DNA of 59,517 nt from an uncultured Gemmatimonadota bacterium (GTDB lineage: Bacteria; Blakebacterota; Blakebacteria; Blakebacterales; Blakebacteraceae). This document shows, in pieces, positions 941 to 17,556 of this stretch. The notes beneath the pieces are model-generated. The model made no database searches, was not told the origin of the DNA, and saw only the letters and a list, made by a program, of their open reading frames with translations. The translations under genes and the position numbers were made by a program. How positions within the stretch are numbered: the stretch's first letter is position 1; every line of letters starts with the position of its first letter. The stretch is taken from positions 1 to 59,517 of the forward strand of contig CAZNUA010000021.1 in assembly GCA_964576115.1 (NCBI GenBank), given 5' to 3'.

Positions 941-3333
941 CGCGCCTGTTCCATCTCGGCCGCTTCCGTCCCGATCCGGAGCGGGACCTGGACTCAGAAC
1001 TCGATTTCCACTTCCGCGAAACGTTCGAAGAACTCGAACGGCAGGGTCTGAGCCCGGACGACGCCCGGGCCGAAACCGAGCGGCGCTTCGGAAATCTCCG
1101 GGGACACCGAGCCGGGCTCGAGCAGGTCGACCGGGATATGGTGCGCATGAACCGGCGACAGCAGTTCTTCTCGGCCTCAGGGCAGAATCTCACCCACGCC
1201 CTGCGTTCCCTGCGACACGCACCCGGCTTCTCTCTGACCGTCATCGGCATCCTGACCCTGGGAATCTGGGCCAATGCCGTCATGTTCGGCATTCTCGACC
1301 GCATCCTGTTCCAGCCTCCGGCCCATATCGAGGAACACCAGCAACTCCGCAGGGTCTTCCGCACCCGTCCGGTATCGAACGGAGCTCCGGACCTGAGCAT
1401 CTCGCTTTCCTATCCCGATTATGAAGCAATGAAGACCGTCACGAGCTTTGCCGGCGTAGCCGCCTACTCCTCGATCGAGGATGTCACCCTCGGCCGGGGG
1501 CGCGAAGCTGACCGGGCGCGGATGAGCACCACCACTCCCGGATTCGCCCCCCTTCTCGGGGTGGAACCGATCCGGGGACGGTTCTTCGCCGCCGCCGACG
1601 ACGAACCGGGAGTTCCTCTGACGGCAGTGATCAGCTACGGCTTCTGGCGGCGGCATTTCGGCGGCGCCCCCGATGTGCTGGGCCGCACCATCGACCTGGG
1701 TTTCGGCGGCTTCTTCGGTGGCGGCGCAACCGTTACCGTGATTGGAATCATGCCGCAGGGCTTTACAGGTCTCGATCTGGAACGGATCGATCTCTGGCTC
1801 CCGCTCACGGCCACCCAGGATCTGCGGGTGGGAATACCGCGCTGGAGAGACACAGCGGGCTTCTCGTTCCTGCGCATCGTGACCCGCCTGAAACCGGGTG
1901 TGACCGATGACAGCGCCCGCACTGAAGCAGACCACCTGTACCGGAATCTGCACCGTGATGTGAGCCGGCCGGACGACATCAACGCCCGTTCGGAGCTGCT
2001 GCTGGGATCGGTGATCGCCGCCCGCGGGCCCGATTCCACCCGGGAATCGATCGTAGCCCACTGGCTGGGAGGCGTCTCCCTGATCGTCCTGCTCATCGCC
2101 TGCATCAACGTGGTAAATCTCACTCTCGGGCGAGCGGTTGACCGCCGTCGGGAGATCGCCGTCCGNNNNNNNNNNNNNNNNNNNNNNNNNNNNNNNNNNN
2201 NNNNNNNNNNNNNNNNNNNNNNNNNNNNNNNNNNNNNNNNNNNNNNNNNNNNNNNNNNNNNNNNNCGCAACCACCTGGTCGAAGTCATGCTCGAAATGGA
2301 TGATATCAGTCCGGAGGCCGCGACGATCAGAGAGCGCTATGACGACGCGGCCCATCGGGTGAGCCGTATTCCTGAAGTGGACGGGGTAACGATCACCACT
2401 TCGCCTGTCGGCTGGGGATTGGGGCTCGATATCTCTATCCCCGGTCTCGATTCCCTGCCCGAGACCGCGTACGGGCCGCCCATGGTGCATTTCGTCAGTC
2501 CCGGTCATGCCCGGGTTCTCGGTCTGCGCCTGATCAGCGGCCGGTATCTCGCAGAAGGCGACGGACCTCACGGCAATCGGGTAATGATCGTCGATGCACT
2601 GATGGCTCGAAAGATCTGGCCCGACCGGGATGCGGTCGGACAGCAGGTCATCGTCAACTCACAGGGCGATGATTCCGAAACCGGGATTCCGCACACTGTC
2701 GTCGGGGTGGTCGAGAACATGAGCAATGGCGAGCTGATCGAGGCTCCGGCGATGATGTTCTACCTGCCCCTGGAGGAAGCGCCTGATTCCCACACAGCCC
2801 GGGCACTCTATGTGCGCACGACCGGCGATCCGGTCCCGGCTCTGTCAGCAATTCAGCGGGCAGCCGTGGGAAATGAACCCGGATTGCGTTATGCCGGAAT
2901 CCGGACGGTCAGGGAGATCTTCGATCCCGAGGCCCGGGCCTGGTCGCTGGGAGCGACGATGTTCTCGGCCTTCGGTTTCCTGGCCCTGGCGGTCGCTTCC
3001 GCCGGTCTTTACAGCCTGCTGGCGTTCGATATCGCCCGCCGCACCCGCGAGCTGGGCATCCGCACCGCCCTGGGGGCCGACCAGGGCATGTTGATCAGGC
3101 TGGTCATACGGGAAGGGCTCCGGCTGACACTCATCGGTCTGGGGCTCGGCTTCACCATCGCCCTGGTTGCGGCCCGCTTTGTTCAGCCGCTGCTGTTCGA
3201 GGTTTCGGCCACCGATCCGGTGGTCTACGGCACGATCACGGCAACCCTGATCCTGACCGCGCTGGCGGCCGCCGCCGTACCCGCCTGGCGGGTGAGCCGG
3301 CTCGATCCGGTCACGGCCCTGCGCGTCGAGTGA
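937..3333 (+). CDS. ADOP-type duplicated ABC permease (MacB/FtsX domains); spans N gap
   Basis: Permease-prefix ELDFHF...RFG, LLIACINVVNL, RTRELGIRTALGA, C-terminal RLDPVTALRVE. GTGA overlap with padR stop. Confidence 0.9.
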   Translation: MTRLFHLGRFRPDPERDLDSELDFHFRETFEELERQGLSPDDARAETERRFGNLRGHRAGLEQVDRDMVRMNRRQQFFSASGQNLTHALRSLRHAPGFSLTVIGILTLGIWANAVMFGILDRILFQPPAHIEEHQQLRRVFRTRPVSNGAPDLSISLSYPDYEAMKTVTSFAGVAAYSSIEDVTLGRGREADRARMSTTTPGFAPLLGVEPIRGRFFAAADDEPGVPLTAVISYGFWRRHFGGAPDVLGRTIDLGFGGFFGGGATVTVIGIMPQGFTGLDLERIDLWLPLTATQDLRVGIPRWRDTAGFSFLRIVTRLKPGVTDDSARTEADHLYRNLHRDVSRPDDINARSELLLGSVIAARGPDSTRESIVAHWLGGVSLIVLLIACINVVNLTLGRAVDRRREIAVXXXXXXXXXXXXXXXXXXXXXXXXXXXXXXXXXXRNHLVEVMLEMDDISPEAATIRERYDDAAHRVSRIPEVDGVTITTSPVGWGLGLDISIPGLDSLPETAYGPPMVHFVSPGHARVLGLRLISGRYLAEGDGPHGNRVMIVDALMARKIWPDRDAVGQQVIVNSQGDDSETGIPHTVVGVVENMSNGELIEAPAMMFYLPLEEAPDSHTARALYVRTTGDPVPALSAIQRAAVGNEPGLRYAGIRTVREIFDPEARAWSLGATMFSAFGFLALAVASAGLYSLLAFDIARRTRELGIRTALGADQGMLIRLVIREGLRLTLIGLGLGFTIALVAARFVQPLLFEVSATDPVVYGTITATLILTALAAAAVPAWRVSRLDPVTALRVE
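2166..2265. other. scaffold gap, true size probably about 430 bp
   Basis: The paralog has about 427 bp (4644-5070) between the equivalent flanks REVAVR and VNRLAMV. Confidence 0.75.
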
Positions 3334-3366
3334 GCGATTTGAGCTGGAGAATGGTGATTATCAAAC

Positions 3367-6147
3367 ATGGGAAAACCTGACATGAAACGACTCCGTTCAC
3401 AGCCGCCCTTTCATGGCCTGAAACGCCTCTTCCATCTCGGCCGCTTCCGTCCCGATCCCGAACGGGACCTGGATTCAGAACTCGATTTCCACTTCCGCGA
3501 AACGGTTGAAGAACTCCAGCGGCAGGGAATGAGCCCCGGCGAGGCCCAGGCCGAAGCCGAGCATCGCTTCGGTGACCGTGTCGGCCATCGGGCCCGCCTC
3601 GAGCACATCGATGCCGGGCAGCTCCGTATGCGTCGTGCAGAAGAGTTCTTTTTCATCCTCCGGCAGAACCTCTCTCACGCCCTGCGTTCTCTGCGACGCT
3701 CCCCCGGCTTTGCCGCCGCTGTCATCTCCATTCTGACCCTGGGGATCTGGGCCAACGCGGTCATGTTCGGTATCCTCGACCGGATCCTGTTCCAGCCGCC
3801 GGCCCACATCGAAAACCATCAGCAGATCCGCCGGGTCTACAGCCGGTTCAATTTCCAGAATCAGATCGTTACCAGCAATACGATGTCTTACCCGGACTTC
3901 GCCGCCCTGAAAGACATGCGGGCTTTTACATCGGTGGCCGCTTATACCGGGCTGTCCACTGCCACCGTCGGCCGGGGCGAGGACGCCCTGCGCGCCATGA
4001 TGATCACAGCCACGCCCGAGTTCATGTCCCTGCTGGGTGCAGATCTTTTCCTGGGGCGGTTCTTTTCTCCTGCTGACGACAGCATCGGGGCCCCCCTGAC
4101 GGCCGTAATCGGATATGGTTTCTGGCGGCGTTGCTTCGGTTCCAATCCCGACGTCATCGGGCGAACCATCGACCTCGGCGTAAGCGGCTTCAACGGCGGC
4201 AGTGCCCCGGCCACGATCATCGGGGTGACCCCGGCGGGTTTCACCGGTGTCGGTCTGTCACGTATCGATATGTTGCTGCCGGTGCAACCCACCCGGGTTC
4301 TCGAAACCGGACGAAGCTCCGGCGTCATGCATCCCGGTCTCTCCTGGCTGCAGATAGTGGCTCGCCTGAATCCGGACCAGACAGAGGAAACAGCAGCCCA
4401 TGAGGCGTCTCTCCGGCACCGTCAGGCCCAGCAGGCAGAGATCGATGCCGGCCGCTGGGATGCCGAGGCCCGTATCGTTCTCGAACCGCTCATCACCGCT
4501 CGCGGCACCCGGGCTTCGCGCGAGGTGATGGTGTCCCGCTGGCTGGCCGGGGTGAGCCTGATCGTTCTCCTCATTGCCTGCGCCAATGTCGCCAACCTGA
4601 TCCTGGCCCGGGCCGAGGACCGGAGGCGGGAGGTGGCGGTCCGCCTCTCCCTGGGTGTGTCCCGCAGCCGGTTGATCGGGCAGATGATCACCGAAAGCCT
4701 GGTGCTTTCCTTCCTGGCCGGGGGACTCGCCCTGGTGCTGGCGGGCGCCAGTGCCGGCTTTATCAGAAATATCCTCCTGCCTCATGTGTCCTGGCCGCAT
4801 TCACCCGTGAACGGCCGGATCATCGCCTTTACTCTGCTGGCCGTGCTCGTCTCCGCGGTGGCGGCAGGATTTCTTCCCGCACTGCAGACTGTCCGACCTT
4901 CTCTGAGCGATGCCCTCAAGGGCGGTGAACGGAGCAGCTCAGGCCGGCGTTCCCGATTGCGATTCATGCTTCAGACGGTACAGGGAGCACTGTCGGTGAT
5001 CCTGCTCATCGGAGCGGGTTTGTTCCTGCGAAGCCTCGAGCACGTACACACGCTTGACCTGGGACTGGATGTCAACCGGCTGGCCATGGTGACACTGGAG
5101 ATGGAAGAGGTCGATGCTTCCAAGACAATCCTGAATCACCGCTACGAGCATGCGGCCGAACGCATCCGCCGAATCCCCGGGGTTGAGGGGGTCGGGATCA
5201 CCTCCACCCCCTTCGGATGGAGAGTCGGTTTCCCTGTCACCGTACCCGGTCGGGATTCCGATCCTAACCAGAGCGTTGATCGGCCCCAGGTGAACTTCGC
5301 GAGTCCCGGCTACTGTCGCGTGCTCGGACTCCGCTTCCTGAGCGGTCGGGGGATCCGGGCCGGTGACGGGCCGGGAGGTGAGAGGATCCTTGTTGTCAAC
5401 GAACTGCTGGCCGAAACCCTGTGGCCGGGTGAAAACGCGGTCGGCAGGCAGGTGCTCATCGGCGACCCGGACAGGGGACCGACACCTCTTCTGACGGTGG
5501 TCGGAGTCGTGGAGAATGCGACCAATGAAGGCCTGACCTGCGAGTCTCTCCAGCAGTTCTATCTCCCCCTGGCCGAGGCACCCGATTACGCCACCGGCTA
5601 TTCCTATCCCGCCGCGGCTCTCTATGTCCGTTCCCGCTCCGATCCCCGTGTCCTCTTCCCGCAGATACGACGGGAAGCCAGTGCGGCAGATGACAACATC
5701 AGGTATGCGGAGATCGAGGGGGTACGGGAGATGCTTGATTCGCAGGCCCGTTCGTGGAGACTGGGAGCCACCCTTTTTACGGCTTTCGGATTGCTGGCAC
5801 TGGTGGTGGCGGTTCTGGGACTCTACAGCACGCTGGCCTGCGATATCGCCCGCCGCACCCGCGAGTTGGGCATCCGCACCGCTCTTGGAGCCGATCGGGG
5901 CAGCCTGATCGGTCTGGTCATGAAGATGGGACTTCGTCTGACGCTCATCGGCCTGGGATTGGGCTTCGCCGTCATCCTGGCTGCGGCCCGTTTCGTTCAG
6001 CCGCTGCTGTTCGAGGTTTCGGCCACCGATCCTCTGGTCTACGGCGCTATCGCAGCAACCCTGATCCTGACCGCCCTGGCGGCCGCCGCCATACCCGCCT
6101 GGCGGGTGAGCCGGCTCGATCCGGTCACGGCCCTGCGGGTGGAATGA
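3367..6147 (+). CDS. ADOP-type duplicated ABC permease, tandem paralog (start 3367 or 3382)
   Basis: LLIACANVANL, REVAVRLSLG, RTRELGIRTALGA, RLDPVTALRVE. Confidence 0.93.
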   Translation: MGKPDMKRLRSQPPFHGLKRLFHLGRFRPDPERDLDSELDFHFRETVEELQRQGMSPGEAQAEAEHRFGDRVGHRARLEHIDAGQLRMRRAEEFFFILRQNLSHALRSLRRSPGFAAAVISILTLGIWANAVMFGILDRILFQPPAHIENHQQIRRVYSRFNFQNQIVTSNTMSYPDFAALKDMRAFTSVAAYTGLSTATVGRGEDALRAMMITATPEFMSLLGADLFLGRFFSPADDSIGAPLTAVIGYGFWRRCFGSNPDVIGRTIDLGVSGFNGGSAPATIIGVTPAGFTGVGLSRIDMLLPVQPTRVLETGRSSGVMHPGLSWLQIVARLNPDQTEETAAHEASLRHRQAQQAEIDAGRWDAEARIVLEPLITARGTRASREVMVSRWLAGVSLIVLLIACANVANLILARAEDRRREVAVRLSLGVSRSRLIGQMITESLVLSFLAGGLALVLAGASAGFIRNILLPHVSWPHSPVNGRIIAFTLLAVLVSAVAAGFLPALQTVRPSLSDALKGGERSSSGRRSRLRFMLQTVQGALSVILLIGAGLFLRSLEHVHTLDLGLDVNRLAMVTLEMEEVDASKTILNHRYEHAAERIRRIPGVEGVGITSTPFGWRVGFPVTVPGRDSDPNQSVDRPQVNFASPGYCRVLGLRFLSGRGIRAGDGPGGERILVVNELLAETLWPGENAVGRQVLIGDPDRGPTPLLTVVGVVENATNEGLTCESLQQFYLPLAEAPDYATGYSYPAAALYVRSRSDPRVLFPQIRREASAADDNIRYAEIEGVREMLDSQARSWRLGATLFTAFGLLALVVAVLGLYSTLACDIARRTRELGIRTALGADRGSLIGLVMKMGLRLTLIGLGLGFAVILAAARFVQPLLFEVSATDPLVYGAIAATLILTALAAAAIPAWRVSRLDPVTALRVE

Positions 6148-11500: not shown

Positions 11501-11803
11501 ACCATCATCGGCGAGCGGACCTGGGGCGGGCTGGTGGGCATCAGCGGCAATCCCGGATTCGTGGACGGCAGTAGCATCTCGGTACCGCGGTTCGCCTTTG
11601 TGGACACCGACGGGAACTGGGCGGTCGAGGCCGAAGGGGTCTCACCCGACATCCGGGTCTGGGACACCCCGCACCTGATCGCGCGGGGCGAGGAGCCGAT
11701 GATCGAGCGGGCGGTGGCGCACCTGCTCGAGGAACTGCAGAAGCCTCAGTACCGCCGGCCGGGTACGCCCCCCGGACCGATCCGTCGTCCCCCGCCGGAG
11801 TGA
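8567..11803 (+). CDS. tricorn-type S41 protease
   Basis: Signal peptide, LLRFP..VVFTYAGDL, PD40 repeats (FSPDG, WSPDG), PDZ domain, GRIGYIHLP, DDRYNGGG, AASGGDAFP, GERTWGG. Confidence 0.95.
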   Translation: MMSLRRGTLLLSLILLAGLTTAVSAQDEARLLRFPHINGNRVVFTYAGDLYTAPLSGGEAKRITSHVGLELFARFSPDGEWIAFSGEYAGTRQVYLIPAEGGVPRQLTYYPDVGPMPPRGGFDHLVLDWTPDGEKILVRANRTPFGQRIGRYFLVDPWESGLEVPLEIPEGSSGATYDPTGTKIAYTRKSREWRHWKRYTGGFQQDITIYDLAAHDSERITDWIGTDVYPMWVGDRIYFVSDREESLKRNLWVYDIGSGGMSQVTTHDEFDVNWPSRGEGGIVYENGGWLYHLDPATNTSRRIPITIHSDQPYTTPYWTNVSNRVDAWDISPGAKRAIFAARGDLFSVPAEHGDIRNLTTTPAIRERDVTWSPDGKWIAYISDTTGDYQLYLMPADGSGEAVQLTDDQEIWILTMSWSPDSKWIGVADNRNRLRAINIENRRITEIATGSKGPLGDFAWSGDASWIAWTMTGDNWMDSVWLYSFTSGEAAMVTGPMTDEANPTFDQSGRYLYFVSFRDYNHGQEGFDARIYAATLRADLPHPFPPRSDEEPSGEPAPEESAEEESGEQEGSLVIDLDGFGDRVVALPGIRPGFYAGLVGLSDGLLYFGDGALRKYSLDSRESETIMEGVQGYAATPDFSKILYRRGNTFGIAPLRPGLQGTPGQLDLDAMEMRIDPKVEWAQIFHDTWLVMRDWFYDPGLHGLDWEAIYERYEPLVAHLAHRFDLDYLQTELVAEMNVGHAYVNSSPEMPRPDRVEVGLLGCEFAADGRYYRIANIFPGQNWHEEFRSPLTEPGIEIEEGEYLIAIDGEEVMTDTNPYSYLVNKADRTVEVTVNSRPRPQGARTYRVRPVRSEQGLRYQEWSAENARLVDELSDGRIGYIHLPNTAIEGHRELFEGLLPLSTKEALILDDRYNGGGFIPEEMAFMVGGRLLNFWSRRYTDMTSQPFVIHTGPKVVLINGQAASGGDAFPYYFRKLGLGTIIGERTWGGLVGISGNPGFVDGSSISVPRFAFVDTDGNWAVEAEGVSPDIRVWDTPHLIARGEEPMIERAVAHLLEELQKPQYRRPGTPPGPIRRPPPE

Positions 11804-11967
11804 TCGGGCGGGNNNNNNNNNNNNNNNNNNNNNNNNNNNNNNNNNNNNNNNNNNNNNNNNNNNNNNNNNNNNNNNNNNNNNNNNNNNNNNNNNNNNNNNN
11901 NNNNNNNNNNNNGCCGGGTACGCCCCCCGGACCGATCCGTCGTCCCCCGCCGGAGTGATCGGGCGGG
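11758..11967. other. scaffold gap with duplicated 55-bp flanks (assembly overlap artefact)
   Basis: 11758-11812 is identical to 11913-11967 on either side of 100 N. Confidence 0.9.
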
Positions 11968-11980
11968 TTCAGATCGTGCC

Positions 11981-13444
11981 TTAGCCTTTGATATTGCCAA
12001 TCGGGCGCAGGCGGGCCACCGGCCGCACCAGGCCGGCTCCGGTGACCACATCGACCACCTCGGCCACGTCCTTGTAAGCCTCGCTGGCTTCCTCGGCCAG
12101 CACGCGGCGCGATTCGGCCCGCACGTAGATGCCCCGGTCGGCCAGTTCGCGGTCGATCTGCCGTCCCTTGAGGTCTTTCCTGGCCCGCGAGCGCGATTTG
12201 AGCCGCCCCGCTCCATGGCAGGTGCTCCCCCAGCTCTCCTCCATGGCCCGGTCAGCCCCGACCAGAACGTAGGAGTAGCGCCCCATGTCGCCGGGGATGA
12301 GGACCGGGTGTCCGACCGCGCGGTAGCGTTCGGGCACCTCGGGATGGTGAGCCGGAAAAGCCCGGGTGGCACCCTTGCGGTGCACGCAGACCTGCCGGGG
12401 TCGGCCCTGCCAGGTATGCTCCTCGATCTTGGCGATGTTGTGGCAGACGTCGTAGACCACCGCCATACCGAGGTCCTCTTCTGAGCGGCCGAGCACCCTG
12501 CTGAAAGCCTCGCGCGCCAGGCAGGTGATCATCTGGCGGTTGGCGAAGGCATAGTTGGCCGCGGCCCGCATGGCCCCCAGGTAGGTCCGGCCCTGTTTCG
12601 AAGCCACCGGAGCGCAGACCAGCTGCGGATCGGGCAGGTCGAGACCGTGGCTGTCCAGGGACGAGCGCATCGTCTTCATGGCGTCATCGGCGACCTGGTG
12701 GCCCAGGCCGCGGCTGCCGCAGTGAATGAAAAAGACGATCTGGCCTTCTTCCAGACCGAATATGCCGGCTGCAGTCGTGTCATAGATCTCTTCGACGACA
12801 TTGATCTCGCCGAAGTGGTTGCCGCTGCCCAGGGTTCCGACCTGGGGCAGACCGCGTTCGATGGCGCGCGCGCTGACGGCATCGGGGTTGGCCCCGGGCA
12901 GACAGCCGTGGCTTTCGAGGGCATCGAGATCGCCTGTCCACCCCCAGCCCTGCTTCACCACCCAACCCGCTCCATGGGCCAGCAGGTCGCGCAGCTGCGA
13001 CTTCGAGAGCCGGTACCGCTGCCGGCTGGCACCGACTCCGGTGGGGATCTCGCTGAAGAGAGTATCGACCAGTTTTTTGAGGCGCGGGACGACCTCGTCT
13101 TCTGAGAGGTTCGAGCGCAGCAGGCGCACCCCGCAGTTGATGTCGTACCCCACTCCGCCGGGGCTGACCACACCCTCGTCGACATCGAAGGCCGCCACCC
13201 CCCCGATCGGGAAACCGTAGCCGAAATGGATGTCGGGCATGGCCAGAGCCGGTCCGACGATCCCCGGCAGACAGGCGACATTGGCCACCTGTCGGGGGCT
13301 GTCGTCCCCGACCAGATGCCGTTCCAGACGCGTATCGGCGTAAATCACCCCGTCTGTACGCATCGGCCCGGTGCGGGGGATCCGTATCCGGTAGTCGTCG
13401 ATCCGTTCCAGACGCAGCGGTTCCGGCGGCTTCACGGTCAGCAC
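11981..13444 (-). CDS. rtcB: RtcB RNA ligase (long, archaeal/eukaryal-like type)
   Basis: MPDIHFGYGFPIGG, GYDINCGVR, GTLGSGNHF, HCGSRG, YDVCHN, HRKGATR, PGDMG, STCHGAGR. Confidence 0.97.
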   Translation of the reverse strand: MLTVKPPEPLRLERIDDYRIRIPRTGPMRTDGVIYADTRLERHLVGDDSPRQVANVACLPGIVGPALAMPDIHFGYGFPIGGVAAFDVDEGVVSPGGVGYDINCGVRLLRSNLSEDEVVPRLKKLVDTLFSEIPTGVGASRQRYRLSKSQLRDLLAHGAGWVVKQGWGWTGDLDALESHGCLPGANPDAVSARAIERGLPQVGTLGSGNHFGEINVVEEIYDTTAAGIFGLEEGQIVFFIHCGSRGLGHQVADDAMKTMRSSLDSHGLDLPDPQLVCAPVASKQGRTYLGAMRAAANYAFANRQMITCLAREAFSRVLGRSEEDLGMAVVYDVCHNIAKIEEHTWQGRPRQVCVHRKGATRAFPAHHPEVPERYRAVGHPVLIPGDMGRYSYVLVGADRAMEESWGSTCHGAGRLKSRSRARKDLKGRQIDRELADRGIYVRAESRRVLAEEASEAYKDVAEVVDVVTGAGLVRPVARLRPIGNIKG

Positions 13445-13608: not shown

Positions 13609-14970
13609 TTACTCCACGAGCGGGAGCTCCGCGAGGGCCTTCTCCACCAGTTCACGCGGATAGGCGTAGTCCTCCAGCTCGCCGCTGAAGTACTTCTCGT
13701 ATCCTGCCAGATCGAAGTGCCCGTGCCCGCTGGCGTTGAAGACGATGATCTTCTCTTCGCCCGTTTCCCGGCAGGCCAGCGCCTCATCCATGACCACCCG
13801 TATGGCATGAGCCGTCTCGGGGGCGGTAATGTGCCCCTCGGCCCGGGCAAAACTCACCGCCGCCGCGTAGGCGGGATTCTGGTGAACGGCCGCAGCTTCG
13901 ATCTCGCCCAGTTCCAGCAGATGGCAGATGATCGGCGACATACCGTGGTAGCGCAGTCCCCCTGCATGGATCGGTGCCGGCACGAAAGAGTGGCCCAGGG
14001 TAAACATCTTGAGTAACGGCGTGGTCGCGGCGGTATCGCCGAAATCGTAGCGGTAGAGACCTTTTGTCAGAGTCGGGCAGGCTTCTGGTTCGACCGCCAC
14101 GATCCGGGTTCCCTTCCCTTCTGTCAGGTTGTCGCGCACGAAGGGGAGCGCGAAACCCGAGAAATTGGATCCGCCCCCCACACAGCCGACGACCACATCT
14201 GGGTACTCCCCCGCCTTTTCGAACTGCCGCACGGTCTCGAGTCCTATCACGGTCTGATGCAGCATGACGTGATTGAGCACGCTGCCCAGGGCGTATTTGG
14301 TGTCCTCGCGCCCCACGGCGGCCTCGACCGCCTCGGAGATGGCGATTCCCAGCGAGCCGGGCGAGTCGGGATCGGCTTCGAGCACCCGCCGGCCGGCCAC
14401 TGTTTCGGGACTGGGGCTGGGCACGCAACTGCCGCCCCAGGTCTCCATCATCAGCCGCCTGTAGGGCTTCTGATCGTAACTGATTCGTACCATGTAGACG
14501 CGGCACTCCAGGTCGAAGAGGTTGCAGGCGAAACTGAGCGCACTGCCCCACTGCCCCGCCCCGGTCTCGGTGGTCAGGCGCTTGACCCCTTCCTGCTTGT
14601 TGTAGAAGGCCTGGGCCACGGCGGTGTTGGGTTTGTGGCTCCCCGGCGGACTCACTCCCTCCCACTTGTAGTAGATTCGGGCCGGGGTATCGAGTGCCCG
14701 CTCCCAGCGCCGGGCCCGCACCAGGGGTGAGGGACGCCAGATCCGGTAAACCTCCCGGACCTCCTCGGGGATATCGATATACCGCTCCTTGCTGACCTCC
14801 TGCATGATCAGGGCCATGGGAAAGAGCGGGGCCAGATCGTCGGGGCTGATCGGCTCTTTGGTACCCGGATGCAGCACGGGAGGCAGGGGCTTGGGCAGAT
14901 CGGCCTGGATGTTGTACCACTGCCGCGGCAGCTCGTTTTCTTCCAGCAAGATCTTGGTCGGTTCCATCAT
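13609..14970 (-). CDS. trpB2: TrpB2 tryptophan synthase beta-like PLP enzyme
   Basis: [14 protein letters not shown]-terminus, GSHKPN (PLP Lys), [46 protein letters not shown]. Confidence 0.96.
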
Positions 14971-15039
14971 CTCACTCCTTTCTCATCATCAGCCGGTGTC
15001 GCGGCCGTTGTCATCGATATCGGACTCCTGCTTCGGACG

Positions 15040-15876
15040 TCATTCGTCGAAGAAGAAAGTCGGTTCGCGGTAAAAGCGGATCGCCTTGGCGGCGACCCGG
15101 GTTCTGATGTCCTCCTGCAGCCGGATTTCCTTCTCGTCCAGGGGCAGATCGGAACGAAGCAGGTCGAGGGGCAGGTTCAGACGCAGGGCCCGCTTGGGCA
15201 GGATCACCCGGGTGATACCGCTGGGTATCAATTGTCCCGCCCCGGTGGCGTCGATCAGGTCCTGCATGGTGAACGGGTCAAAGGATATCAGGGCTGTGAA
15301 ATCTGGGTAGTTGCGCTCCAGGTCCCCGGGATCGGTGTAACTGACCCGGTCGAACAGAGTGGCCCGGTGGTAGATCCGGGTGAAGCGCTGGAGCTGATCG
15401 ACACGTTCCGGGAGATCTTCTGAGCCCCGGAATGAGACCTCATGACCATCGCGGAAGCGAATCCGTATCAGCGCGTCGTCATGCGCACCGGGGAATTCAT
15501 CGAATCCGGGCACGGCCCGAGCTGCGGCCAGCAGTTCGTCGGCTTGCATGTGCTCGACGGCATGATGCCAGCTCTGCAGGGAAAACCCCTCCTCCAGTAC
15601 GTCAATATCCTGAACCACTACATGAGGTATTCCCATTTTCTTTAATGCTGTCATGCGATTAGCACCGTCTAAAACAATTCGTCTTCCGGTTCCGTCAACC
15701 GGTGCGACGACCGGCGGGTTCTTCAGGATCCCGTCGGCAGCAAAGCGTTCGACGAGCCGGCCCACCCGTTCGTCGTCATGGGCTTCGTGCAGTACGACCT
15801 CCTCGATCGTCGCCATTCGCAGCACGGGCAGTTCCCCGATCTTCAGCCAGCCGTTGTCTCGTCTGTCGTTGCTCAT
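15040..15876 (-). CDS. SbnI/SerK-like free L-serine kinase (ParB/sulfiredoxin fold), 278 aa
   Basis: VVLHEAHD, KNPPVV, IVLDGANRMTALKKMG, SWHH, GQLIPSGITR...RALRLNLPLDLL and RFYREPTFFFDE are collinear with S. aureus SbnI motifs as I recall them (LHE, DGVHR, WQH, VPAGVTR, CLNLQVPL, RCYTEK). No HTH. Confidence 0.8.
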   Translation of the reverse strand: MSNDRRDNGWLKIGELPVLRMATIEEVVLHEAHDDERVGRLVERFAADGILKNPPVVAPVDGTGRRIVLDGANRMTALKKMGIPHVVVQDIDVLEEGFSLQSWHHAVEHMQADELLAAARAVPGFDEFPGAHDDALIRIRFRDGHEVSFRGSEDLPERVDQLQRFTRIYHRATLFDRVSYTDPGDLERNYPDFTALISFDPFTMQDLIDATGAGQLIPSGITRVILPKRALRLNLPLDLLRSDLPLDEKEIRLQEDIRTRVAAKAIRFYREPTFFFDE

Positions 15877-15912
15877 TTCCCTGGTCCTTCTCCTGGATGC
15901 CCTTCCCTGCAC

Positions 15913-15947
15913 AAAAAAAGGCCCGCCGCAGGTGTCTGCAGCGGGCC
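15913..15947 (-). terminator. attenuator intrinsic terminator (3:4 hairpin)
   Basis: mRNA GGCCCGCUGCAG-ACAC-CUGCGGCGGGCC-UUUUUUU: 12-bp stem (one G-U) plus U7, ending 36 nt before the kinase ATG. Confidence 0.92.
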
Positions 15948-16007
15948 CGTTTGTGGCCTTGTGTGGGATCGGATCAGGTCATGGTACAGCTGCACTCCGC
16001 CCGCTGC
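15938..16007 (-). promoter_or_regulatory. antiterminator (2:3 pairing)
   Basis: GCAGCGGGC (16007-15999, 13 nt after the last Trp codon) is perfectly complementary to GCCCGCUGC (15946-15938) in the 5' arm of the terminator. Confidence 0.85.
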
Positions 16008-16056
16008 TCTGTTCCGAGCGCCACCACCAGTGGCTGCGGGTCAAAGGTGCGTTCAC
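15979..16056 (-). CDS. trpL: trp leader peptide (25 aa, Trp10-Trp11-Trp12)
   Basis: GTG AAC GCA CCT TTG ACC CGC AGC CAC TGG TGG TGG CGC...TGA gives MNAPLTRSHWWWRSEQSSGRSAAVP; upstream GAGGA/AGGA; directly upstream of the terminator. Confidence 0.88.
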   Translation of the reverse strand: MNAPLTRSHWWWRSEQSSGRSAAVP

Positions 16057-16128
16057 GATCCTGTCCGTTCCTCTCGCGATCTCTCCGGTGCGGACCGCCG
16101 GCCGGGCGATCCGCCAATCGCAGGCCTT

Positions 16129-16157
16129 TGTGTACACGATCCCCGAATGGGAGTCAA
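16129..16157 (-). promoter_or_regulatory. putative sigma70 promoter of the trpL-kinase-trpB2 unit
   Basis: TTGACT (16157-16152), 17-nt spacer, TACACA (16134-16129). Confidence 0.55.
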
Positions 16158-16317: not shown

Positions 16318-17556
16318 TCACCGGTTGCGGAGCACTACCGGCTGAGTCCAGGCCTGCTCGGGAGCCTCTTCGCCGGCTGCCGGGTGGGCCTGCATCCGGA
16401 TCGAGACGACTCTGGCACGGACATAGAGTTCGTCCCCGTCATACCGGTAGACGGCGGGATTGGCCGTGGTTTCATGCAGCACGATCCCCGGTTCTCCAGG
16501 ATCGTCGCCTCTCATCCGGGTGCCGATGAAACGGGTGGTGTAGCTCACCCCATCTTCGACGGCCATTTCGACCAGATAACGGTTTCGCCCCCGCTGCACG
16601 TCCAGTAATTCGACCCCGGTCGAGGCATAGAATTCTCCGGCCCGCATGGCATCGAGAACGGCGTCGGTTTCCAGGACCGGGGTCCGGACCACGATCCAGC
16701 CCCGGCCGGGATGGTGGACCTCCGGATTGACGGCGAAGTAGTTATGCGTGTCGTCGGTGGCCACCCCGTAGAGCGGTCCCAGACCGAGCCGTGTCAGACG
16801 CAAGGTGTTGGCGATGTCCCAGACCTCGTCCATGCCCGGGTGGGTCTCGTCGCCGTAATTGTTACATCCGGTGCTGCCGTTATAGACCTCGAAGAGATGG
16901 GTTCCCTGCATCGAAGCCAGTTCTTCGGCCGTGAGGGCCCAGCGCCAGTTGGTGTGATTGATGTGGGCCAGCAGGTTTCGTCCCGTCGTCGCTGCCTGCT
17001 CGTTGATCGCCTGCAGATCTCGCTCGACGGTCTCCATGATCGTCTCGCCTCCCTGAATCGGGATGTGCTCGACGGGATTGAAAACGTTGATGTGCAGGGG
17101 CTTGCCGGCGCAGTAATCGCTGATCTCCTCGCCTTCGATGAGCAGGAAAGCGCCCGGAACCTCGAATCTCTCCCGCAGTTCGGCGAGCGTTTTCAGCCGC
17201 ATCCGCTCACCCTCTTCGTCGCGACGCGTTTCGATCCACTGCGGTCCGAACGTCCGGCGCAGGTCGCCAAGCCGCTCGGGGGTCAGGGGGCCGGCCTCTG
17301 AAACCCGGTACCAGCGCTCCCCGCGCTGCAGGACGTCGTGATCCGTCAACGACAGGAAATCGTATCCGTGATCCCGATACCACTGCACGACCGCCTCGGG
17401 GGCGGCGTCACCGTCGCTCCACAGGCTGTGGGCGTGGGTATTGCCGCGATACCACTGACCGGACCTGGCTCCGGTACAGGCCATGCTCACCAGGGACAGA
17501 TACCCTGTCAGCAGCAACACCGCAGTTGGCAGGACGACCCGTAGATATCTCTTCAT
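16318..17556 (-). CDS. PHP-like (CehA/McbA-type) metallohydrolase, probable lipoprotein
   Basis: WYRGNTHAHSLWSDGD, TDHD, GEEIS, HINH, EVYNG, ATDDTH; signal peptide ending SMAC. Confidence 0.85.
   Translation of the reverse strand: MKRYLRVVLPTAVLLLTGYLSLVSMACTGARSGQWYRGNTHAHSLWSDGDAAPEAVVQWYRDHGYDFLSLTDHDVLQRGERWYRVSEAGPLTPERLGDLRRTFGPQWIETRRDEEGERMRLKTLAELRERFEVPGAFLLIEGEEISDYCAGKPLHINVFNPVEHIPIQGGETIMETVERDLQAINEQAATTGRNLLAHINHTNWRWALTAEELASMQGTHLFEVYNGSTGCNNYGDETHPGMDEVWDIANTLRLTRLGLGPLYGVATDDTHNYFAVNPEVHHPGRGWIVVRTPVLETDAVLDAMRAGEFYASTGVELLDVQRGRNRYLVEMAVEDGVSYTTRFIGTRMRGDDPGEPGIVLHETTANPAVYRYDGDELYVRARVVSIRMQAHPAAGEEAPEQAWTQPVVLRNR

Follow-up and report, generated by a model that had tools for sequence, protein, structure and literature searches.

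A conserved operon of a putative free serine kinase and TrpB2 behind a Trp-codon leader: a probable O-phosphoserine-dependent route of indole salvage

Free serine kinases built on a fold derived from ParB and sulfiredoxin (Srx) are known in two settings. SbnI of Staphylococcus aureus stands beside SbnA, a pyridoxal 5'-phosphate (PLP) enzyme that uses its O-phosphoserine in staphyloferrin B synthesis, and the ADP-dependent SerK of Thermococcus kodakarensis feeds cysteine synthesis; according to Makino et al. 2016 (PMC5120207), clear homologues of SerK were not found in bacteria. TrpB2, a stand-alone TrpB-like PLP enzyme, is widespread, and its reported preference for O-phosphoserine has had neither a clear physiological explanation nor a known supplier. 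It is cited as being O-phosphoserine dependent, with Busch et al. 2014 given as the reference, and enzymes of this class are described as having a high affinity for indole. Here we describe a locus in which homologues of the two enzymes are encoded together, behind a leader with three tandem Trp codons, on a 59,517-nt stretch of DNA (contig CAZNUA010000021.1 of assembly GCA_964576115.1; hereafter the window, whose coordinates are used unless another contig or locus is given) from an uncultured Gemmatimonadota bacterium. This operon is real, conserved and well defined. Its parts (a free serine kinase, an O-phosphoserine-dependent TrpB2 and a Trp attenuator) have known counterparts; their combination seems to be new. 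We consider it probable that the kinase supplies O-phosphoserine to TrpB2 for the salvage of indole, the two genes being expressed under ribosome-mediated attenuation that responds to Trp.

An initial annotation of this DNA had proposed a promoter, a leader encoding WWW together with an attenuator, an SbnI-like open reading frame (ORF), a 69-bp gap and trpB2, all in one orientation. Each of these elements is found on the minus strand, at or within the positions assigned to it, and in the order of transcription they are as follows.

16157-16152 and 16134-16129, minus strand: promoter-like site read from the sequence, TTGACT and TACACA with a 17-nt spacer
16056-15979, minus strand: leader ORF MNAPLTRSHWWWRSEQSSGRSAAVP, with a GTG start and 25 codons plus stop
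16029-16021, minus strand: the three Trp codons (WWW) of the leader
16007-16000, minus strand: 5' strand of the antiterminator, GCAGCGGG, complementary to the 5' arm of the terminator at 15945-15938
15948-15913, minus strand: intrinsic terminator, with its stem at 15948-15919 (13 bp, 10 of them G-C pairs, with an ACAC loop)
15919-15913, minus strand: T-run of the terminator, seven T
15876-15040, minus strand: SbnI/SerK-like putative free L-serine kinase, 278 amino acids (aa) from an ATG
15039-14971, minus strand: intergenic spacer of 69 bp
14970-13609, minus strand: trpB2, stand-alone TrpB-like PLP enzyme, 453 aa

A scan of the spacer between the kinase gene and trpB2 found no terminator-like site. 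The kinase ORF can also be read in a longer form from a GTG at 15912, an unlikely start because it lies inside the tail of the terminator. Eight sequencing runs hold the stretch (four of them with most of its sequence words), and no RNA run is listed among them.

The mechanism that we propose would operate as follows. Transcription would begin at the promoter-like site and run into the 25-codon leader with its WWW. When charged tRNA-Trp is plentiful, the translating ribosome would pass GCAGCGGG, the hairpin of CCCGCUGCAG and CUGCGGCGGG with its U-tract would form, and transcription would halt before the genes. When charged tRNA-Trp is scarce, the ribosome would stall at WWW, leaving GCAGCGGG free to bind the terminator's 5' arm; with the terminator blocked in this way, both genes would be transcribed. 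The kinase, with its SerK/SbnI fold, would convert L-serine and a nucleotide into O-phospho-L-serine, and TrpB2 would condense O-phosphoserine with indole to give L-tryptophan and phosphate. The phosphoanhydride bond spent in the first step would provide a good leaving group for the second, making the condensation effectively irreversible and thus suited to indole that is scarce. As searches of the genome revealed no trpA, trpB1, trpC, trpD or trpE, the organism's only route to tryptophan would be this operon, starting from external or recycled indole.

The pairing of the two genes recurs widely. A pattern-seeded search, keeping one genome per species, yielded 42 loci from other genomes, and in 37 of these the kinase gene is followed directly downstream, on the same strand and after a gap of roughly 20-120 nt, by trpB2. 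Two further loci (L004 and L024) stop at the end of the kinase gene, at a contig edge. The synteny suggested from the window alone is therefore present in 37 of the 40 loci that are testable, and in several phyla. Among the remainder, L042 has trpB2 preceded only by a short remnant of the kinase gene, and L037 and L038, the most distant of the full-length matches (38-39% identity), have no trpB2 within 4 kb. The carriers are recorded as Gemmatimonadota, Zixibacteria, Ignavibacteria, Calditrichota, Eisenibacteria, Marinimicrobia and some others. Within a phylum the module is rare: the kinase is present in 2 of 121 sampled Gemmatimonadota genomes, both already among the 42; of the 7 genomes of the small phylum to which the window belongs, 4 carry it. 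Because the gene pair and its leader recur in so many other genomes, a chance origin of the arrangement is excluded. At one locus (L039:4001-6254) the matches to the kinase and to trpB2 are each broken into several shifted fragments, owing either to pseudogenes or to assembly frameshift errors.

Conservation also bears on the regulatory region. The promoter-like site was not flagged by a scan for the consensus, and its second hexamer has three matches out of six. However, 20 of 24 related loci have a CTTGAC element 5' of the leader, and about 18 of those 20 (judged by eye) show, 17-18 nt further on, a hexamer that starts with TA. This conservation supports the promoter that the initial annotation had read and that the scan had missed. 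The start codon of the leader aligns with the ATG of related leaders; a short ORF encoding WWW or WWWW lies 5' of the kinase gene in 24 of the 40 loci examined, and also in L042. In the 22 W-run loci that have a run of at least five T, the leader stop falls 50-63 nt before that run. The leader region as a whole folds at -115.9 kcal/mol, compared with -90.2 ± 4.1 for shuffled sequences (z = -6.3; none of 200 shuffles did as well).

The two helices of the attenuator were followed in an alignment of the window with 20 of the 24 W-run loci, from which L003 and L006 (no run of five T) and L034 and L036 (too divergent) were left out. Across these relatives 86% of the cells of the terminator are paired, compared with at most 49% when slid, and 7 of its 12 pairs have changed on both sides, a number reached by none of 500 shuffles. 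The antiterminator helix, formed by GCAGCGGG with CCCGCUGC, is paired in 87% of cells over the 21 sequences, compared with at most 61% when slid. In four sequences a G of the terminator 5' arm is replaced by A, and its partner, in the 3' arm as well as in the antiterminator strand, has become U (C:G to U:A); such an in-step change at the shared position is what two mutually exclusive helices with a common strand predict. A CCCGC-like segment early in the leader ORF pairs with a GCGGG segment in the minimum-energy fold and, by eye, in several relatives; this upstream 1:2 pairing was left uncounted, the leader alignment being out of register there. Thus, the elements of the Trp attenuator that the initial annotation had described are present and covary. 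Their switching by ribosome stalling we infer from the classical attenuation model.

The leader does not belong to the Rfam family Trp_leader (RF00513), against which it scores 15.1 bits with a gathering score of 41 (E = 3.6). No other Rfam family reached its gathering score on the leader, the best being ar14 at 16.7 bits, and none matched in 18 related loci, including those that have no W-run leader. Carriers of the latter kind in Ignavibacteria and Zixibacteria are L026-L033, L035 and L041, some of which have terminator-like hairpins upstream. In the window, the minimum-energy fold has a strong hairpin, GCGGAUCGCC...GGCGGUCCGC, within the 5' untranslated region that separates the promoter-like site from the leader (16057-16128).

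The second gene of the operon encodes a TrpB2, as had been proposed. The protein scores over the cut-offs of both TrpB2 models (NF009057, 748 bits with a cut-off of 366; TIGR01415, 655 bits with a cut-off of 519) and falls below that of the TrpB1 model (TIGR00263, 139 bits with a cut-off of 392); its best matches in the PDB are chains of Sulfolobus TrpB2. The substrate loop reads AGGLRYHG, compared with APGLDYPG in Pyrococcus TrpB1, which places R340, an Arg specific to the TrpB2 class, opposite the TrpB1 Asp that hydrogen-bonds the serine hydroxyl. None of the 25 TrpB2 sequences of related loci departs from R340 or from the PLP lysine, K113. An Arg at this position would fit a phosphate-bearing substrate; the 2014 study by Busch and colleagues is said to have dealt with the specificity residue of TrpB2.

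The first gene is the less familiar of the two. A Pfam scan of its product matched no family. The NCBIfam model of SbnI (NF033589) aligns with residues 31-283 of the 290-aa GTG-start ORF that was scanned, at E = 7e-22 and with 78 bits (cut-off 350), and the SerK model (NF053625) gives 38 bits (cut-off 380). Since both scores lie under the curated cut-offs, the protein is placed, at the level of sequence, in a separate subfamily, orthologous to neither SbnI nor SerK. A profile of 26 family members searched against the PDB finds SbnI over nearly its full length (E = 1e-18), followed by PF0380 (3e-7) and SerK (5e-5). The AlphaFold model (predicted local distance difference test, pLDDT, 85; predicted template-modelling score, pTM, 0.81) leads to the same proteins: the first nine Foldseek matches are SbnI and SerK/PF0380, over 234-271 columns and with target-normalised template-modelling (TM) scores of 0.72-0.79 (SbnI, E = 1.9e-17 and TM 0.76-0.79; SerK/PF0380, E = 1.5e-14). 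ParB, Noc and sulfiredoxin come lower, over some 80-96 columns only. The model thus predicts the two-domain fold common to SbnI and SerK, in which a ParB/sulfiredoxin-like N-terminal domain is joined to a C-terminal domain specific to the family.

The catalytic motifs are retained as well. E31, D70, G71 and R74 are invariant in the 26 family sequences, and in the alignment E31 and the DG..R motif correspond to LHE and DGvhR in SbnI, and to HE and DGhhR in PF0380. The catalytic residue of SbnI is Glu20; the PDB titles of SerK entries name E30A and E30Q mutants with phosphoserine bound. Of the SbnI-like kinase put forward in the initial annotation, the full-length fold and the catalytic motifs of SbnI/SerK therefore stand, and identity with SbnI as an orthologue does not. 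A further feature of the family is its C-terminus: the last 13 residues, IRFYREPTFFFDE (window 15040-15080), are invariant or nearly so in the 26 members, are modelled at low confidence and have no equivalent in SbnI.

A different role for this protein, as a regulator or as a non-catalytic partner that stands in for TrpA by activating TrpB2, has to be considered at this point. The invariant tail IRFYREPTFFFDE has the low model confidence that a docking peptide might have, the NCBIfam label of SbnI is that of a bifunctional transcriptional regulator and O-phosphoserine synthase, and the window's genome has TrpB2 without TrpA; yet the invariance of the catalytic Glu and of the DG..R nucleotide motif in 26 of 26 sequences argues for selection on catalysis, Pfam finds no DNA-binding domain in the SbnI-like protein, and a regulator encoded behind the attenuator, within the operon that it regulates, would be unusual. 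We judge such a role to be improbable. In a prediction of the complex of the kinase with TrpB2, each supplied as an alignment, the score was 0.00 in both runs, which were made without control runs and speak neither for nor against binding or channelling. The closest full-length homologue of the kinase in the database, P0001 (343 aa, 60% identical), is longer by 45 residues at its N-terminus, which looks like a mis-called start reading through its own leader and terminator region.

Distant homologues place the kinase family in a wider setting. When 1.84 billion representative proteins were scanned in full, 960 relatives came up at E ≤ 0.001, and 19 of the longer distant homologues among them (P0160-P0265, ~33-41% identity) were scanned against Pfam. 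Fourteen are fusions with a D-2-hydroxyacid (SerA-type) dehydrogenase; one of these 14 carries a PALP domain at its N-terminus and is thus a 910-aa protein of PALP, dehydrogenase and kinase. One of the 19 is fused to ThiS, another to JAB, and three have no Pfam domain. We take all four kinds of partner, SerA-type, PALP, ThiS and JAB, to belong to O-phosphoserine metabolism: SerA is linked to phosphoserine through SerC, and the ThiS-like CysO, the JAB peptidase Mec and the PALP enzyme CysM make up the O-phosphoserine-dependent cysteine pathway of mycobacteria. In Desulfurococcales, serK genes are reported to adjoin genes for SerA-like proteins and aminotransferases (PMC5120207). Through these fusions and neighbours the wider family is linked, time and again, to enzymes that produce or consume O-phosphoserine, which supports the kinase assignment independently of TrpB2.

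The same fusions also bear on a second alternative, that the O-phosphoserine made by the kinase serves another purpose (cysteine synthesis by a sulfhydrylase, or the breakdown of serine via SerC and SerA), with TrpB2 using plain serine and the adjacency of the genes reflecting shared regulation only. Among the 19 distant homologues scanned, the partners are SerA-like, PALP, ThiS and JAB domains and in no case TrpB2, and the free serine kinases that are known act in cysteine synthesis and serine assimilation (PMC5120207). Nevertheless, 37 of the 40 testable loci, from several phyla, have the kinase gene directly 5' of trpB2, and in 24 of 40 loci it sits behind a leader that senses Trp codons only, for which an enzyme of cysteine synthesis or serine breakdown would have no reason, there being no cause for it to respond to tRNA-Trp. 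The invariant R340 of TrpB2, with its fit to a phosphate-bearing substrate, points away from plain serine too, and this alternative is in our view unlikely.

The preferred reading, that O-phosphoserine from the kinase is used by TrpB2 to capture indole, gains from the content of the genome. The assembly consists of 144 contigs and is 93.7% complete, with 0.04% contamination. Searches each of which matched 14 of 14 control genomes found in it no trpA, trpD, trpC (indole-3-glycerol-phosphate synthase, IGPS) or trpE, and the only match of the TrpB model near significance was trpB2 itself, so that no trpB1 was found either (that search, too, matched 14 of 14 controls). A canonical TrpA-TrpB1 tryptophan synthase is thus not found in this genome at its 93.7% completeness, and the absence of other trp genes that had been noticed in the window extends, for trpA, trpB1, trpC, trpD and trpE, to the genome as a whole. 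The same genome (G000) encodes a protein of the tryptophanase family (contig 9, 60133-61512, or L058:1134-2513; NF009709, 686 bits), which is under the equivalog cut-offs of both TnaA and tyrosine phenol-lyase, as well as a tyrosine phenol-lyase over its cut-off (contig 35, 15329-16714, or L059:830-2215; TIGR02618, 750 bits). Judging from these genes, the organism may be able both to release and to recapture indole.

It is against this background that a product other than tryptophan must be weighed. The kinase might act on threonine or homoserine, or TrpB2 might take a nucleophile besides indole and so form a tryptophan analogue or another beta-substituted amino acid; the kinase subfamily is distant from its characterised members, and TrpB-type enzymes are promiscuous with nucleophiles. 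On the other side, control by tandem Trp codons implies a product that relieves a shortage of charged tRNA-Trp, the TrpB2 lies over both of the TrpB2 model cut-offs, and searches of the genome revealed no other route to tryptophan. A different product therefore appears very improbable.

Whether O-phosphoserine could come from elsewhere is a related matter. Canonical serC and serB were not found in the window's genome. An Aminotran_5 search gave 17 matches there, and the 12 that were scanned comprise two enzymes of the AGXT type besides cysteine desulfurase-like proteins and class I/II aminotransferases. One class V aminotransferase gene of the AGXT type adjoins that of a SerA-like short dehydrogenase (contig 9, 13842-15996; L055), and this pair could, from its sequence, be a candidate for a non-canonical serine/phosphoserine pathway. 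Among the 42 carrier genomes serC_1 is over the cut-off in one, G048, which is the genome that holds L042. In this locus (L042:3830-4115) the kinase gene is reduced to its first ~17 codons (N-terminal NGSLEIGELP) joined to its last ~14 (C-terminal IRFYREPTFFFDE), with the WWW leader, the terminator and trpB2 kept intact, and the genome has no trpA. The arrangement is suggestive of a kinase that is needed only where another source of O-phosphoserine is missing; L042 is a single case, and the comparison of serC with the kinase involves genomes that are related and uneven in completeness. Beside the leader of L042, on the minus strand at 1772-3589, lies a 606-aa ORF with a Pfam thiol-activated cytolysin domain (111 bits), which is unrelated to the present finding.

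These observations can be drawn together in a broader and more tentative proposal, to which we give somewhat less than an even chance. The Trp attenuator, free serine kinase and TrpB2 would form a patchy, horizontally mobile module, which serves as the sole tryptophan route in bacteria of the Gemmatimonadota/Zixibacteria/Ignavibacteria group that have lost the whole trp pathway, with indole coming from neighbours or from their own tryptophanase. The kinase would exist for want of a standing pool of O-phosphoserine from SerA and SerC, and would be lost again where a canonical SerC is present, as in L042.

Several points weigh against the salvage reading or its wider form. The identity of the kinase to SbnI is about 21-23%, so that its substrate and nucleotide are assigned by homology, and scores of 78/350 bits for SbnI and 38/380 bits for SerK are such that the specificity could differ. 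For TrpB2, the interpretation of the Arg/Asp position draws on an alignment and on general structural knowledge, and the reported preference for O-phosphoserine concerns archaeal and Thermotoga enzymes and not this clade. A W-run leader is absent from 16 of the 40 loci, mostly those of Ignavibacteria and Zixibacteria (two of the 16 have too little upstream sequence). The genome contains SerA-like dehydrogenases and AGXT-type aminotransferases that could make O-phosphoserine; thus, where the initial annotation had pointed to serA and serC as genes to look for, the absence of a canonical serC agrees with a need for the kinase and these other enzymes do not. Canonical serC is in any case uncommon in Gemmatimonadota, being found in 14 of 121 sampled genomes (one of them, G103, unpublished). 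As to tryptophan synthesis, the five trp genes are often clustered, and one unassembled contig could hide them all; this explanation is weakened, and not excluded, because the genomes of two close relatives, those of L001 and L002, are likewise without trpA. Finally, trpA is over the cut-off in 20 of the 42 carrier genomes and not in 22. The separate idea that the pair is confined to trp-less genomes is ruled out by those 20 carriers. With these points in view, the interpretation offered in the initial annotation is supported, as far as sequence can take it, in that every check possible by computation agreed with it.

Two neighbouring genes flank the operon. A gene for an RtcB RNA ligase (574 bits), at 11981-13444, follows trpB2 after 164 nt in the same orientation, and one for a PHP-domain metallohydrolase-like protein lies at 16318-17556, upstream of the operon. 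Neither is counted as part of the system, because they are common only to the closest relatives, L001 and L005. At about 11750-11980, 3' of the rtcB stop, an ORF translation contains 34 X, which corresponds to a stretch of N (an assembly gap).

The initial annotation had been aware of no SbnI-type kinase described in tryptophan synthesis, and our search of the literature, outside of which lay most subscription journals and supplements, also found no description that links a serine kinase to TrpB2. SerK and SbnI are mentioned in a survey of the ParB-CTPase fold (PMC12704722) and in GapMind 2026, and term searches within these texts found neither tryptophan nor trpB. The kinase homology itself is already reflected in some source annotations, and has thus been noticed by automatic annotation.

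The operon offers both an explanation of the preference of TrpB2 for O-phosphoserine and a supplier of it, by setting a kinase homologue 5' of trpB2 under the control of a sensor of Trp codons. If the assignment is correct, free serine kinases, known from cysteine and siderophore synthesis in archaea and staphylococci, would gain a role in making tryptophan and a range that takes in several little-studied bacterial phyla. It would also suggest that some uncultured bacteria of sediment and seawater have no de novo synthesis of tryptophan and live on indole, a dependence that bears on cross-feeding and on the design of culture media. Used together as biocatalysts, the kinase and TrpB2 could convert indoles irreversibly into tryptophan analogues. 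Should the more tentative proposal of a sole-route module also hold, it would provide the first physiological explanation of the O-phosphoserine dependence of TrpB2, and an ATP-driven tryptophan synthase system without an alpha subunit.

How the locus compares with the systems that are closest to it can now be set out. It resembles SbnI-SbnA in having a putative serine kinase of the ParB/Srx-derived two-domain fold beside a PLP enzyme that would use its O-phosphoserine, and in the full-length fold (TM 0.76-0.79) with the Glu of LHE and the DG..R motif. It differs in that sequence identity is 21-23%, the partner is TrpB2 rather than SbnA, control is by a Trp attenuator rather than by iron or heme, and the kinase family of the window has its invariant FFFDE tail. 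With SerK it has in common the fold and the catalytic Glu, and it would share the phosphorylation of serine ahead of a PLP-dependent beta-replacement (PMC5120207). Here the identity is 12-14%, and SerK is archaeal, its product going to cysteine and 3-phosphoglycerate rather than to tryptophan.

Distant homologues of the kinase that are fused to ThiS-like, JAB, PALP and SerA-like domains recall the CysM-CysO-Mec system of Mycobacterium, and suggest the same supply role for another PLP enzyme that uses O-phosphoserine; unlike the kinase of the window, those fusions belong to other subfamilies, at ~33-41% identity, and have no link to tryptophan. The TrpB2 of the window is close to that of Sulfolobus and Thermotoga, with 387-446 bits to 6hul_B, 4qys_B and 6hte_B and an identical AGGLRYHG motif including its Arg. 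Some trpB2 genes of Sulfolobus and Thermotoga lie inside or near trp operons. In the literature examined no dedicated kinase is described as adjoining them, whereas the trpB2 of the window is paired with a kinase gene in a genome without trpA. Lastly, the leader resembles the trp attenuator of Escherichia coli (RF00513) in its short ORF with tandem Trp codons, in its U-tract, and in having antiterminator and terminator hairpins that exclude each other. It is set apart from that attenuator by falling outside the RF00513 family, by its three or four Trp codons in a different leader peptide, and by what it would control, which is a salvage pair and not a biosynthetic operon.

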